From Actinomycetota bacterium (GTDB taxonomy: Bacteria > Actinomycetota > Acidimicrobiia > Acidimicrobiales > VFJN01), in contig JBKPHT010000139.1 of the NCBI GenBank assembly GCA_046730015.1, positions 1-62,319 of the forward strand: a DNA stretch of 62,319 nucleotides, written 5' to 3'. Made by a program: the position numbers and the translations under genes. Shown one piece after another: positions 22,748 through 29,920 of the stretch (the first letter of the stretch is position 1; each line of letters opens with the position of its first letter). The notes under the pieces were generated by a model. It was not told where the DNA came from. It saw nothing but the letters and a program-made list of their open reading frames with translations, and searched no databases.

Positions 22748-25462
22748 CTATCGCCTCGCCAAGCCGGCCCGGCGGCCGAAGCGGCGGCGGGGTGGGGCGA
22801 CGCCGTCGCGGAGGAGGCGGCGGATGGCGGCCTCGTGGGCCGGGCCGAGCTTGGCGCCGTCCCGGTCGGTCAGCTCGAAGCGGTCGACGACCAGGTCGTC
22901 ACCCGCGGTCAGCGACGCGGCCAGCACCGACGCGCCGGCTGCGTCGAACACGGCGGTGACGTCGTGCAGCAGCGCGGGCCGGTCGACCGAGCGGACCTCG
23001 GCCACGGTGTGCCACGGCGACGACACGTTGTCGAAGACGACCTCGGCATCGGGCAGCGGCGCCGCGGTCGGCACGGCACCGAACCCCGCCTCGATGGCCG
23101 CCGCCAGCACCTCCCCGTCGGGCCAGCCGTCGCCGTGGACGGTGAACGCCTCGACCGCCGCGCCGTCGTCCCAGGTCACGACCACCGCGTCGGCGACGTC
23201 GAGGCCGGCCGCGCCCAGCGCCGCGGTGACCGTCGCCAGCAGGGCCCGGCGGTCGCGGGCGCCGATCTCGACCCACCAGCGCTGGTCCCCGGCCCGCCCG
23301 GTCCGGACCCGGGCCTCGTGCCGACCGGGCATCGGGGTGATGAGCTGGGCGTGGCGGGCGATGGCGTCGGGCGGCTGGCGGAGCACGTAGGACTGGGGGG
23401 CGTGGGCGATCCGCTCGACGAGCGGCGCCTGGCCGTCGACCAGGGCCGTGGCCTCGAGCCGGCGGATGTCGACCAGGCCCCGGGCGTCGGGACCGGTCAG
23501 CTCCGGCCGATCGAGCACCGCCTGGACGAGCTCGTGCAGCGACCGGAGCCGGGCCTCCTCCCACGCCTCGTGGCCGTCGCTGCGGAGAGCGCTCAACGTG
23601 TACAGCAGGCGGGCCCGCTCGGGGGTCTCGAGGTGAGTGGCGAGCTGGAGCACCTTCTCCTCGCCGAGCGCGCCGGGCTGGCGGGCCGCCGACCACAGCA
23701 GATCGCGGTCGGCCACCGCCGCGACGACCTCGGCACGGTCGTCCGGGTCGACGCCGATGCGGTCGAGCAGCGACCGGGAACGGGCGACCGCGTCGGCCAT
23801 CTCGTCGAACGCGTCGGCCAGCAGCGCCGCCAGGAACAGGCGGTCGACGTCGTCCAGCGCCCGGATCTCCAGCGCCAGCGGGTCGTCGGCGTCGAGCCGG
23901 CGCAGCCGCTCCATCGCCGGGAACCGGTACGCCTGCAGCGGGTCGATGGTGAACGGCTCGTCGTGCCGCCTGCGAAGCGCCTCGGCCAGCTCGGGCAGGC
24001 TGCGATCGAGCACGCCGGTGGTCTCGAGGAAGCGCCAGCCCCGCGCGTTGCCCCGCTCGACGACGTCGAGGAGCTGGTTGCGGGTGGCGGCGTCCCAGGC
24101 CAGTGGCGTGTCGGGCAGGCACGCCAGCCAGTCGAGCACGTCGCCGCCCGGCCGGTTGCGCCCCACGGCGACGGCGGCAGCGAGCGCGACGGGCAGAGCC
24201 GCGGCGTCGGGCGGCGTGGCCGACAGCCGGACCTCGTCGCCGGACACCTCGAGCCAGCCGCCCTCGGGCACGGGCACGTCGGGGGGCGGCCCGGTGCGAG
24301 TCGTCCCCCGGGACAGCCCCGCGTAGCGGACCTTGAGCAGCTGCGGCGTCGCCAGGGTGGTCACGAGCACGACCAGCAGGAGCGCGGCGTACAGCTCGTC
24401 GCCCAGCACGCCGGTCTGGAGGCCGATGGTCGCGAAGATGAGGCCGACCTCGCCCCGCGGCAGCATGCCGAGCCCGATGAGCGGCTTGTCCCCCGGGGTG
24501 CCGATGGCCCCGAGCGGGGAGACGAGCTTCCCCACCACGGCCACGGCCAGGAGGATGGCGGCGTCGCGCAGCACGTCGACGCGGCCGAACGCGGCGATGT
24601 CGGCGTCGATGCCGATCTGGAGGAAGAAGACGGGGATGAACAGGTGGCCCACCGGGGTGAGCTCGCGCCGGATGCGGTCGGCCTGGTCGCTGCGGTTGAG
24701 TGCGATGCCCGCGACGAAGGCGCCGACGATGGGGGCGAGCTTCGCCACGTCGGCGAGCTCGGCGAAGGCCAGGGTGAAGGCGAGGGCCAGCGCGACCAGC
24801 GTCCCGCTCGACCGGGACAACCGGGCGACCGCCCGGAACAGGGGCGGCGCCACCCGCATGCCGACGAAGACGCCGGCGACAAGGAAGGCGACGGCCCCGG
24901 CGATGATGCCGGCCACCGACACGAGCGACACCGAGCCCTCGGTGACCAGCCGGACGACGACGGTGAGCACGACCAGGCCCATGACGTCGTCGGCGACGGC
25001 CGCGCCCAACACGACGCGGGCCTCGGTGGTGGCCATGGCCCGGAGGTCGCTGAACACCCGGGCGGTGATGCCGACGCTCGTGGCGGTGAGCGCGGCGCCG
25101 ACGAACAGGGAGGTGTTGAAGTCGTCGGCGACGAACGCCTCCATGGCCCCGAGGCCGAGGACCAGCGGCGTCACCACGCCGACCACCGCGACCAGGAACG
25201 AGGCCCGCCCCACCCGGCCGAGCTCGACCAGGTCCATCTCGAGGCCGACGTCGAGCAGGAGGAGGATGACCCCGATCTCCCCGAGGACGTGGAGCACCTC
25301 GTCGCCGTGGCCGACCCAGCCCAGCACCGACGGGCCGACGAGGATGCCGGCGACGATCTCGCCGACGACGGCGGGGACGCCGATCCGTTCGGCGACCTCG
25401 GCCGCCACCTTGGCGGCGATCAGCACCACGAGGATGTTGCGCAGGACCTCTGCGACGTCCAT
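22748..25462 (-). CDS. NapA-type cation/H+ antiporter fused to the GlnD C-terminal half (degenerate HD plus two ACT domains)
   Basis: aa 1-380 carry TATSVGIT, AAVADD, GKL and GMLPRGEVGLI; the remainder carries GVLDRSLPEL, W...RL..L, SY..IARH, ARDRRALLA and FDNVSSPWHTVAEVRSVDRPALL. Confidence 0.85.
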   Translation of the reverse strand: MDVAEVLRNILVVLIAAKVAAEVAERIGVPAVVGEIVAGILVGPSVLGWVGHGDEVLHVLGEIGVILLLLDVGLEMDLVELGRVGRASFLVAVVGVVTPLVLGLGAMEAFVADDFNTSLFVGAALTATSVGITARVFSDLRAMATTEARVVLGAAVADDVMGLVVLTVVVRLVTEGSVSLVSVAGIIAGAVAFLVAGVFVGMRVAPPLFRAVARLSRSSGTLVALALAFTLAFAELADVAKLAPIVGAFVAGIALNRSDQADRIRRELTPVGHLFIPVFFLQIGIDADIAAFGRVDVLRDAAILLAVAVVGKLVSPLGAIGTPGDKPLIGLGMLPRGEVGLIFATIGLQTGVLGDELYAALLLVVLVTTLATPQLLKVRYAGLSRGTTRTGPPPDVPVPEGGWLEVSGDEVRLSATPPDAAALPVALAAAVAVGRNRPGGDVLDWLACLPDTPLAWDAATRNQLLDVVERGNARGWRFLETTGVLDRSLPELAEALRRRHDEPFTIDPLQAYRFPAMERLRRLDADDPLALEIRALDDVDRLFLAALLADAFDEMADAVARSRSLLDRIGVDPDDRAEVVAAVADRDLLWSAARQPGALGEEKVLQLATHLETPERARLLYTLSALRSDGHEAWEEARLRSLHELVQAVLDRPELTGPDARGLVDIRRLEATALVDGQAPLVERIAHAPQSYVLRQPPDAIARHAQLITPMPGRHEARVRTGRAGDQRWWVEIGARDRRALLATVTAALGAAGLDVADAVVVTWDDGAAVEAFTVHGDGWPDGEVLAAAIEAGFGAVPTAAPLPDAEVVFDNVSSPWHTVAEVRSVDRPALLHDVTAVFDAAGASVLAASLTAGDDLVVDRFELTDRDGAKLGPAHEAAIRRLLRDGVAPPRRRFGRRAGLARR

Positions 25463-25565
25463 GTCCGTCCGCTCAGGGGGTGGGTCGGGACGCGCACCGG
25501 GCGGGCACGGTGGGTCCGTGCCCGCCCGGTGTCGTCAACGGATGTGACTCAGTGTGACCGGGCGG

Positions 25566-28698: not shown

Positions 28699-29622
28699 AT
28701 GGACCTCGGACTGTTCGGCATCAACATGAACCTGCTCGGCACCGACCCCGCAGCAGCCGTCACCGTGGCCCGGGCGGCGGAGGCGGCCGGCTGGGAGAGC
28801 GTCTGGGCCGGCGAGCACTACGTCCTACCCGATCCCCGCACGCCGACCTCGCCCGCCCGGCCCGAGACGCCGATGCTCGACCCGTTCGTGGCCCTGGCCA
28901 ACGTCGCCGCCCACACCACGACGCTGCTCGTCGCCACCGGGGTGATCGTCGTGCCCCTCCACCCGCCGCTGATGCTGGCCAAGCACGTCGCCTCGCTCGA
29001 CCGGGTGAGCGGCGGGCGGTTCCTGTTCGGCGTCGGCGCCGGCTATCTCGCTCCCGAGTTCGAGGCCCTGGGCGTACCGATGGCCGGCCGGGGCGATCGG
29101 CTCGACGACCACCTCGACGCCCTCGAAGCCGTCTGGACCTCGGCGCCGGCCGCTCACGACGGCCCCTACACCCGGTTCACCGGCGTGCGGGCCGAGCCCC
29201 GCCCGCTCCGCCAGCCGGGCCCGCCGCTGCACGTCGGCGGCCACTCTCCCCGGGCCTACGAGCGGGCCGTGACCCGGGGGCACGGGTGGTACGGCTTCGC
29301 CCTCGGGGTCGACGCCACCGCCGACTGCCTCGACGCGCTGCGCCGGGCGCAGGACGAGCACCCGCGCCCGCCGGAGCTCGGTCCGCTCGAGGTGTCGGTC
29401 ACGCCCGACCCCCGGATCGACCTCGACGACGCCACCGTGGCCGCCTATGCCGGCCTCGGCGTCACCCGGCTGATACCCCTCCCGCCGCGGCGGGCGGCCG
29501 ACGTCGGCGACATCGTCCGTTTCGTCGACGAGCTGGGCGAGCGGGTGGCCCGCCACCCGGACCTCGGCCACCCGGACCTCAGATCGCGTCGTCGCCCTTC
29601 TCCCCCGTCCGCACCCGGGTGA
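28699..29622 (+). CDS. LLM-class (probably F420-dependent) oxidoreductase
   Basis: [36 protein letters not shown]. Confidence 0.9.
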
Positions 29623-29920
29623 CCGAGTCGAGGGGGAACGCCCAGATCTTGCCGTCGCCGATCTTGCCGGTGCGGGCCGCGGCGGCGATGACGTCGACCA
29701 CCTTGTCGGCGTCCTGCGACGGGACGATGACCTCGATCCGCACCTTGGGCACGAACTCGATCGTGTACTCGGCGCCGCGGAACGTCTCCGTCTTGCCGCC
29801 CTGGCGGCCGTAGCCCTGCATCTCGGTGACCGACAGGCCGTGGACGCCCGCGCCGCGCAGCGCCTCCTTCACGTCTTCCAGCTTGTGGGGCTTGACGACG
29901 GCGGTCACCAGGTGGGCCAT
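29579..29920 (-). CDS. glnK: P-II nitrogen regulatory protein
   Basis: [24 protein letters not shown] (Tyr51), [15 protein letters not shown]. Confidence 0.96.

Follow-up and report, generated by a model that had tools for sequence, protein, structure and literature searches.

A predicted second Amt locus in Acidimicrobiia: amt2 beside an antiporter–GlnD fusion, in addition to amtB-glnK-glnD

In the usual view of bacterial nitrogen control, GlnD acts on P-II, P-II acts on its targets, and AmtB is plugged by GlnK. Among actinobacteria, Streptomyces, Corynebacterium and Mycobacterium carry the corresponding genes as an amtB-glnK-glnD operon. On the minus strand of contig C139, the 62,319 nt of which are called the window throughout, an Amt gene is followed by a gene whose product joins an antiporter to a GlnD-like tail, and a P-II gene lies upstream. 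The contig belongs to a genome bin of 5.0 Mb in 465 contigs (72% guanine plus cytosine (GC), 93.6% complete) whose nearest relatives are uncultured soil Acidimicrobiales. Does this locus represent the canonical operon in rearranged form, as originally predicted, or a different system, and what might such a system do?

The layout on which the original prediction was built is confirmed. The amt gene ends 103 nt before the fusion on the same strand (gap 25463-25565), and a P-II gene with the equivalent of Tyr51 lies on the minus strand about 2.4 kb upstream (2438 nt from the amt start at 27140 to the P-II stop at 29579), with four genes between, two of which run on the opposite (plus) strand. The GlnD origin of the tail also holds, since a 62-sequence tail profile aligned by hhalign collinearly with residues 332-785 of the GlnD encoded in the same genome (99.2%, E 2e-19). 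In contrast, the claim that the locus is a rewired amtB-glnK-glnD operon fails at the genome level. Contig C381 carries amtB (4304-5545), glnK (~3936-4271) and glnD (1502-3913) in this order on one strand, and its glnD is full length (803 aa; 618 bits on TIGR01693, above the cut-off), which contradicts a replacement. The window amt, which had been taken for the canonical amtB, belongs to a different subfamily with other pore and signature residues and is 32% identical to the AmtB of C381, while the fusion tail shares 25-29% identity with the GlnD of that contig. A recent duplication of the canonical operon was considered as the origin and rejected, these identities being far too low. Furthermore, many relatives hold the canonical and the second system side by side (L055, L081, L085, L053 and L060).

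The P-II gene had been read as a displaced canonical glnK. Its product falls instead in a distinct paralogue clade (support 100/99), apart from the GlnKs that follow amtB, and matches the NCBIfam P-II models at 131-133 bits, below the equivalog cut-offs. Its T-loop (...FRGAEY...) holds a tyrosine that, owing to one extra N-terminal residue, is residue 52 and corresponds to Tyr51; the Arg47 equivalent and the ATP-loop residues are kept, and Tyr46 is replaced by Phe. Because the gene is flanked by opposite-strand genes, a convergent luciferase-like monooxygenase (LLM) gene and a divergent GNAT gene, it cannot share a transcript with amt and constitutes its own transcription unit.

Given the intact operon on C381, the low identities and the separate P-II clade, the window locus is, on sequence grounds, an old and additional system and not a rearranged amtB-glnK-glnD operon, and its genes are here called amt2 and PII2. 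It resembles the actinobacterial operon in that an Amt gene and a GlnD-related gene share a strand, with GlnR-type boxes upstream and a P-II gene nearby. It differs in the Amt subfamily, in having no P-II gene between the two genes or directly after amt2, so that the order amtB then glnK is lacking, in a GlnD part that is fused to a transporter and is without the transferase and HD catalysis, and in a hairpin between the genes. These genomic conclusions, taken as a whole, are held with high confidence.

The fusion, Amt2 and their pairing

The N-terminal half of the fusion is a predicted NapA-like CPA2 cation/proton antiporter. Pfam Na_H_Exchanger (PF00999) covers residues 15-373 at 215 bits, and TIGR00932 matches at 180 bits, below its subfamily cut-off of 238. 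The nearest solved structure of the transmembrane (TM) half is Thermus NapA (4bwz, 199 bits), compared with 68 bits for KefC. Asp158 and Asp159 align to the 'DD' pair of NapA, which binds the ion, and K312 of 'VVGKLV' to the Lys of 'ILGKVL', the conserved NapA lysine; none of the three varies among 16 fusion homologues. Thermus thermophilus NapA, an electrogenic Na+/H+ CPA2 member (PDB 4bwz, 5bz2, 5bz3), shares the TM half, the Asp-Asp pair and the TM10-type Lys with the fusion, and differs in having no cytoplasmic sensor tail.

The tail itself (residues ~400-904) corresponds to the C-terminal part of GlnD, about 450 residues of it. TIGR01693 matches residues 451-886 at profile positions 369-847 of 850 (E 5.8e-27; 94 bits, cut-off 519). 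There is no nucleotidyltransferase domain, as the hhalign match starts at GlnD residue 332 and the N-terminal 385 residues of the fusion are PF00999. The HD motif is degenerate, with LLADAFDE where the genome's own GlnD reads LLHDIGKG. As the HD histidine position shows no conservation among the 62 family members, hydrolase activity appears to be lost. With no transferase and a dead HD motif, the tail is predicted to be unable to modify P-II. An AlphaFold2 model of the tail on the 62-sequence alignment (predicted local distance difference test 92, predicted template-modelling score 0.80) consists of a helical domain followed by two ACT folds, each with the order beta-alpha-beta-beta-alpha-beta, and both ACT domains align to ACT1 and ACT2 of the genome's own GlnD. 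Foldseek comparison of the tail with the PDB gave weak, partial matches to the body of class-II CCA- and A-adding enzymes (TM-score ~0.35) and to tandem ACT proteins, with no GlnD structure among the matches, and a PDB sequence search with the tail returned a sole match, to ACT, at E 0.04. Compared with GlnD as modelled by TIGR01693, the fusion therefore keeps the linker and helical HD-type domain, ACT1 and ACT2 in collinear order, and differs in lacking the transferase and the HD histidine and in beginning with a 13-helix-type antiporter. In both 'DRPGLL' loops of the ACT domains, Gly is replaced by Ala in the window protein and its nearest homologue (DRRALL and DRPALL), a change that could alter ligand binding in the window subclade.

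Kef-type CPA2 exchangers carry a fused RCK tail. KefC and KefB (PDB 8bxg, 9emb) therefore resemble the fusion as CPA2 exchangers with a fused cytoplasmic ligand-binding domain, predicted in the case of the fusion. They differ by their RCK/KTN tail, that of the fusion being GlnD-derived (helical plus two ACT domains), and the TM half of the fusion is nearer to NapA; no TrkA/RCK Pfam domain was found in the fusion, and the KefC/KefB profile matches its TM part only (positions 5-378). Another point of comparison is AmhT/AmhM of Bacillus pseudofirmus, a CPA2 K+/NH4+:H+ antiporter and a precedent for NH4+ transport that affects ammonium homeostasis; it differs by its separate RCK partner and is not known to be linked to Amt or GlnD.

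The fusion family is large: clustering at 90% identity gives more than 248 clusters, most of them labelled Acidimicrobiales or Acidimicrobiia and almost all of about 900 aa. Of 201 genomes sampled evenly across the class, 32 carry the fusion. Databases label it only 'cation:proton antiporter', and literature searches for a description of the fusion found nothing relevant.

Amt2 (PF00909, 335 bits) is closest among solved structures to the sensor Amts Ks-Amt5 (6eu6, 231 bits) and Sd-Amt1 (8qj3/8qpf), with lower scores for Af-Amt1 (139 bits) and E. coli AmtB (~119 bits). Pflüger et al. 2024 (PMC11152129) sort Amt/Rh proteins into three clusters and propose QX6EX15NX2D[F/T]X54-60TX2[S/T] as the signature of cluster 2, which has the N1/N2 ammonium site and comprises receptors as well as plant AMT1 transporters. 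In the window Amt2 and 53 orthologues (n=54), Q71, E78, N94, F98, T178 and T181 are invariant, and the position of the signature Asp, the N2 ligand, is occupied by Ile (46) or Val (8). Six of the seven signature positions are therefore present, and the gap to T-x2-T is longer through a loop insertion. The genome's own AmtB and eight other AmtBs show T, Y, N, A/C, x, I and A at these positions, the pattern of the assimilatory cluster 1. The equivalent of Asp160 (D236) and the twin histidines H244 and H400 are invariant in the 54 amt2 and nine amtB sequences. Amt2 is thus predicted to be a cluster-2, AMT1-like Amt that keeps the N1 ligands without the N2 Asp, and it may be a transporter, a receptor or both. 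With Ks-Amt5 and Sd-Amt1 (PMC5764959, PMC11152129) it shares Q, E, N, F, T and T; it differs by Ile or Val at the N2 Asp and by having no fused kinase or cyclase.

Conservation of the pair was assessed in 80 loci with fusion homologues 43-82% identical to that of the window, in which the window genes were placed by tblastn. An amt2 orthologue stands directly beside the fusion in 54 of the 80, and these adjacent Amts are 52-84% identical to the window Amt2 (all but one at least 59%) and about 30% to AmtB. The orientation varies: 25 pairs run amt2 to fusion as in the window, 24 run fusion to amt2, and five are divergent. Among the 26 loci without an adjacent amt2, the available sequence of 15 stops less than 1.7 kb from the fusion on one or both sides. 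In an even class sample of which 200 genomes were tabulated, 23 carried both genes, 8 the fusion only, ~16 amt2 only and 153 neither, a co-occurrence with an odds ratio of 27 (p 1.6e-13) which, like the adjacency counts, ignores shared ancestry. The 23 genomes with both genes have them adjacent in 12 cases, at 14-22 kb on one contig in five and on different contigs in six. Adjacency has outlasted changes of gene order and orientation, which argues for a functional coupling, but it is not obligatory. Together, amt2 and the fusion form a conserved and apparently undescribed gene pair.

Linkage of the fusion to P-II genes, which the original prediction expected together with linkage to amt, is far less common: only 14 of the 80 fusion loci have a P-II gene within 10-kb flanks, and L011, the nearest relative for which complete 10-kb flanks are available, lacks one within 10 kb. 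Where such genes occur, they stand in several contexts. Some lineages have superclusters in the order fusion-amt2-PII-amtB-PII, or fusion-amt2-PII beside glnD-glnK-amtB (L055, L081, L050, L085, L053, L060). Members of the PII2 clade lie by the mini-regulator gene described below and amt2 in L031; in L019 and L032 they follow amtB-glnK and precede the mini-regulator, and in L064 and L087 they follow a third Amt. In L031, L090, L097-L099 and L101, a P-II gene stands directly upstream of amt2. The notion of a displaced glnK, untenable for the canonical gene, survives in this weaker sense. These upstream P-IIs group with the PII2 clade with weak support, and a basal split between P-IIs 'upstream of amt2' and 'downstream of amt' is suggestive at a weak support of 51/85. 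The arrangement (regulator)-PII-amt2 may be old, and the window may represent it with the CYTH, hydrophobic-protein and LLM genes inserted. A P-II gene is directly next to amt2 in 8 of 14 fusion-less genomes vs 3 of 54 fusion-adjacent loci (p 5e-5). This depletion of P-II beside amt2 when the fusion is adjacent fits the idea that the fusion tends to occupy the place where a P-II/GlnK partner otherwise stands.

Two further observations concern these neighbourhoods. The third Amt type, which follows fusion-amt2 in L064 (10386-11711) and L087 (15404-16723) and is itself followed by a PII2-clade gene, is 37-39% identical to amt2 and 30-33% to AmtB. In loci without amt2 (L025:12764-16143, L036:12782-14542 and similar), the regulator and fusion genes are followed by hydantoinase/oxoprolinase A and B genes, calls that were Pfam-checked in L025 and L036 only; this context is nitrogen-related, leading from 5-oxoproline to glutamate.

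Regulatory sequences and expression

The strict pattern GTTCA-N6-GG(N)(C/A)A occurs three times in the amt2 operator (27192-27207, 27233-27248 and 27266-27281), against 0.28 occurrences expected in the window, and 21 times in the whole genome. Across 16 orthologous amt2 promoters, a footprint of the form GTTCA-N6-GGACA...GTGACA...GTTCA-N6-GGTCAGACA stands ahead of a GAAAGGA ribosome-binding site. With a position weight matrix of the operator, the proximal amt2 box is the top match in the 5-Mb genome, at 32.8 bits with the next at 22.1. Inference of a regulon with this matrix was attempted and given up, other top matches lying mostly inside coding sequence; the only informative sites beyond amt2 were those at the genome's own amtB (rank ~38) and between glutamine synthetase genes (rank ~26).

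In form, the amt2 boxes are 5-n6-5 direct repeats with 11-bp phasing, of the GlnR/OmpR type, with TTCAC-n6-GTCAG and related boxes at amt2. Actinobacterial GlnR boxes have been given as gTnAc-n6-GaAAc and GTnAC-n6-GTnAC (PMC3087709). Exact GlnR consensus boxes occur at the position of the amt2 boxes in L021, L027 and L059 and upstream of operons in which a regulator gene precedes the fusion, and a related box, TTCAC-n6-GAAAC, lies at the genome's own amtB. The sequence GTTCAC-N5-GTTCAC (contig C30:2623-2644), in a 147-nt region between two divergent glutamine synthetase genes, is probably the GlnR box in its local form. In relatives, the regulator-fusion operons are preceded, at about 48 nt, by boxes such as TCAC-n6-GAAAC and TCAC-n6-GTAAC-n6-GTAAC, and the generic box density in these promoters is 3.0-3.5 per kb vs a background of 0.11-0.21 per kb. 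Because GlnR-type boxes precede amt2, amtB, the glutamine synthetase genes, the mini-regulator and the regulator-fusion operons, control of the module by nitrogen through a GlnR-like factor is plausible. In Streptomyces venezuelae, Na+/H+ antiporter genes are induced by nitrogen starvation in a GlnR-dependent manner (PMC3087709).

The regulator in question belongs to a family of about 165 aa with an OmpR-type winged helix, the N-terminal half of which, by comparison with BasR, is only the last third of a receiver domain. Homologues are found in 35 of the 80 fusion loci, where they lie directly ahead of the fusion, between it and amt2 (L046, L059) or next to PII2; in loci without amt they precede the fusion by 5-20 nt, and in the closest relatives of the window they stand before the pair of small membrane protein gene and amt2. 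The window copy, the only one in the genome, lies 20 kb from amt2 and shares 59-63% identity with the regulators that immediately precede the fusion in L036, L038, L039 and L052. The mini-regulator tree is poorly resolved as to paralogy between copies 'next to fusion' and 'next to amt2'. The repeat GAAAC-N6-GAAAC, which matches the GlnR 'b-site' (PMC3087709), has two sites in the 5-Mb genome, one at the mini-regulator and one before a gene without recognised nitrogen link (a gene not searched against families). That the mini-regulator is a candidate binder of the amt2 operator is a guess. Its neighbours are genes for a THAP4-like haem-binding protein and a cNMP-binding protein.

The 103-nt spacer that separates amt2 from the fusion has a folding energy of -56.3 kcal/mol (z = -4.8), and relatives have equally strong hairpins of different sequence in the same position. 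In 20 of 49 loci, irrespective of gene order, a perfect stem of at least 10 bp lies no more than 120 nt downstream of the amt2 stop, compared with 1 of 78 after the fusion stop and 2 of 400 random background windows, and no such hairpin separates the genes in the fusion-to-amt2 order. Since the stems follow amt2, and rarely the fusion, in either order, the hairpin belongs to the amt2 3' end and is a predicted terminator- or attenuator-like element of that gene. A dispersed repeat element was ruled out, the hairpin being unique in the genome. With this conserved element between the two genes, and 32 nt from the hairpin to the fusion ATG, simple co-transcription of amt and fusion as first envisaged is doubtful; the fusion is probably expressed by read-through, below the level of amt2. 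In soil metatranscriptomes (runs X25, X26, X31 and X35), short amt2-like contigs are abundant, with a summed word depth of up to thousands, and the fusion yields almost none; as these contigs are of 35-60 nt, come from relatives and represent conserved parts of amt2, the difference in depth is a hint at most. High expression of amt2-type genes in soil is accordingly only hinted at.

Proposed function and competing explanations

We consider it reasonably likely that the pair forms an accessory module under nitrogen control, the tail with its dead HD and double ACT domains reading nitrogen status and thereby gating the NapA-like antiporter beside Amt2. Under nitrogen limitation, a GlnR-like factor would switch the module on, with amt2 made in excess and the fusion at a lower level through the hairpin. 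The dead-GlnD tail would act as an allosteric sensor of nitrogen status that gates the antiporter in place of the RCK tail of Kef. Glutamine sensing through the ACT pair has been proposed for GlnD, and glutamine at the ACT pair would be the likeliest ligand of the tail; modified P-II at the dead HD pocket may be an alternative input. NapA-like members carry Na+, and other CPA2 members K+ or NH4+. An exchange of Na+, K+ or NH4+ for H+ might be matched to Amt2-mediated ammonium entry, either to compensate charge or pH or, in the manner of an ammonium relief valve, to serve an Amt that is mostly without a GlnK plug. As a specific mechanism, glutamine-gated antiport is a tentative proposal, and export of H+, NH4+ or K+, as the original prediction had it, would be a putative role.

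Several points weigh against this module. Adjacency has exceptions: amt2 does not adjoin the fusion in 11 loci for which both flanks were available (one of them, L037, has a more distant Amt in the same place), and about half of the evenly sampled genomes with both genes have them apart. Approximately 16 of 39 amt2-carrying genomes have no fusion, so that Amt2 apparently works without it, and shared ancestry, as stated above, is left out of the statistics. The assignment to GlnR is only putative, as the half-site G[T/G]TCA also resembles PhoP-type boxes, and the metatranscriptome fragments span no amt2-fusion spacer and cannot show co-transcription. The Ala residues in the ACT loops depart from the family consensus, so the ligand-binding loops differ in the window subclade. 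With regard to physiology, an electrogenic CPA2 antiporter driven by the proton-motive force would import H+, with no obvious relief of the acid load from ammonium assimilation, and an NH4+ valve placed next to an open Amt2 would amount to a futile cycle. The ligand of the tail, the transported ion and the direction of transport are only candidates.

Other explanations share part of this evidence. It is unlikely, in our estimate, that the dead HD pocket docks the T-loop of (modified) P-II and that PII2 or GlnK, not glutamine, switches the antiporter. In favour of such docking are the retention of a helical HD-like domain that is well folded in the model though catalytically dead, as well as the Tyr51 and Arg47 equivalents and ATP-loop residues kept in PII2, and PII2-type genes do recur in the same neighbourhoods. 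However, a P-II gene within 10 kb is the exception among fusion loci (14/80) and is missing from the closest full-flank relative, and P-II is depleted beside amt2 when the fusion is present.

Quite unlikely is a model in which Amt2 is mainly a receptor or transceptor like Ks-Amt5 and Sd-Amt1, signalling by protein contact to the antiporter or the mini-regulator, with the antiporter as output. Six of the seven AmR signature positions, including all N1 ligands, are invariant in Amt2, the nearest structures are two sensor Amts, and the partners of Amt2 vary among fusion, P-II and mini-regulator, all of which would suit a receptor. Nevertheless, the N2 Asp is I or V in 54 of 54 orthologues, Amt2 has no fused transducer and a tail of only ~25 aa, and the apparently very high abundance of amt2-like transcripts in soil metatranscriptomes would not be usual for a receptor. 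Moreover, cluster 2 includes true transporters such as plant AMT1 (PMC11152129). A broader version, which we regard as decidedly improbable, would make the locus a second membrane nitrogen-signalling circuit parallel to GlnD/GlnK: Amt2 would report external ammonium and the tail glutamine and/or PII2 modification, together setting ion or proton flux and, by holding or releasing the mini-regulator, transcription from the amt2 operator.

It is very unlikely that the two genes are not functionally coupled at all, being neighbours by shared descent or regulation, with the antiporter serving general Na+ and pH homeostasis. The terminator-like hairpin between them, the separation of the pair in half of the even sample and the occurrence of amt2 without the fusion speak for this reading; against it stand an adjacency that survives inversion of order and orientation across fusion identities of 43-82%, the odds ratio of 27, a tail derived from a nitrogen sensor, and the fact that non-adjacent pairs are often still within 14-22 kb. 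Finally, a rewiring of the canonical operon, in which glnD lost its transferase half to the antiporter fusion and glnK was pushed upstream, is scarcely credible: the amt to GlnD-like order recalls amtB-(glnK)-glnD, the tail is GlnD-derived and a P-II gene lies nearby on the same strand, but the intact operon with its 803-aa GlnD on C381, the 32% identity of amt2 to AmtB with its other signature class, the 25-29% identity of the tail to the genome's own GlnD, the separate P-II clade and the many relatives holding both systems side by side all speak for an addition.

In the reading preferred here, an entire class of actinobacteria abundant in soil and fresh water adds to the usual chain a second Amt, usually without a GlnK of its own, paired with an exchanger that bears a recycled, catalytically dead GlnD sensor. 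Should the tail prove to gate the exchanger, it would be the first case in which a sensor domain of the GlnD type switches a transporter directly; a dead enzyme would have been put to new use as a receptor, and nitrogen status would be linked directly to ion and pH homeostasis. The Amt2 family further lends itself to testing whether cluster 2 Amts with a retained N1 site are transporters, receptors or both.

Gene map of the window and neighbouring genes

The gene map (Table 1) was drawn from a GC-frame plot, open reading frame statistics and Pfam and NCBIfam scans.

Table 1. Coordinates of the features discussed, in window positions.
Feature	Position	Strand	Basis
Fusion gene, 904 aa	22748-25462	-	Pfam, NCBIfam, strong coding signal in GC at third codon positions (GC3)
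Antiporter TM domain, aa 1-385	24308-25462	-	PF00999 E 1.2e-63
Helical GlnD-like domain, degenerate HD motif	23339-24091	-	hhalign vs own GlnD; AlphaFold2 model
Two ACT domains, aa ~718-793 and ~807-886	22805-23311	-	Pfam ACT; AlphaFold2; Foldseek; own-GlnD alignment
amt2-fusion spacer, 103 nt	25463-25565		
GC hairpin, perfect 16-bp stem, loop ACCCA, without U tract	25495-25531	-	Folding
amt2, 524 aa, with signal peptide	25566-27140	-	PF00909 E 4.5e-100
amt2 operator, three direct-repeat boxes	27192-27281	-	Pattern count, footprint, position weight matrix
Small membrane protein, 66 aa, weak DUF4229 match (E 0.004)	27367-27567	+	Frame plot, translation
CYTH-domain protein	27586-~28050	-	Pfam CYTH E 2e-6; frame plot
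Hydrophobic TM protein, 171 aa	28113-28628	-	GC3 0.97; translation; without family match
F420-dependent LLM-class oxidoreductase	28696-29622	+	TIGR03619 232 bits vs cut-off 166.9; frame plot
P-II paralogue PII2, 113 aa	29579-29920	-	PF00543 E 2.7e-28, 98.7 bits
GNAT gene, divergent from P-II gene	from ~29950	+	
Mini OmpR-type regulator	47654-48148	-	Trans_reg_C E 4e-13
GAAAC-N6-GAAAC box, 21 nt upstream of mini-regulator start	48170-48185	-	

The LLM gene converges on the P-II gene, and their 3' ends overlap by 44 nt (29579-29622). Scans of 22.5-30.2 kb for sigma-70 consensus promoters and U-tract terminators found none, such scans being unsuited to high GC. The four genes between amt2 and PII2 had been described as unrelated; the count of four stands, and the description does not hold for all of them, as the small membrane protein gene is a conserved neighbour of amt2, lying directly upstream of it in 16 related loci and divergently in 15 of the 16. 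The CYTH gene had no homologue adjoining amt2 in the relatives examined. This gene, of the triphosphate tunnel metalloenzyme type, sits where L010, L011, L012 and L018 have the mini-regulator.

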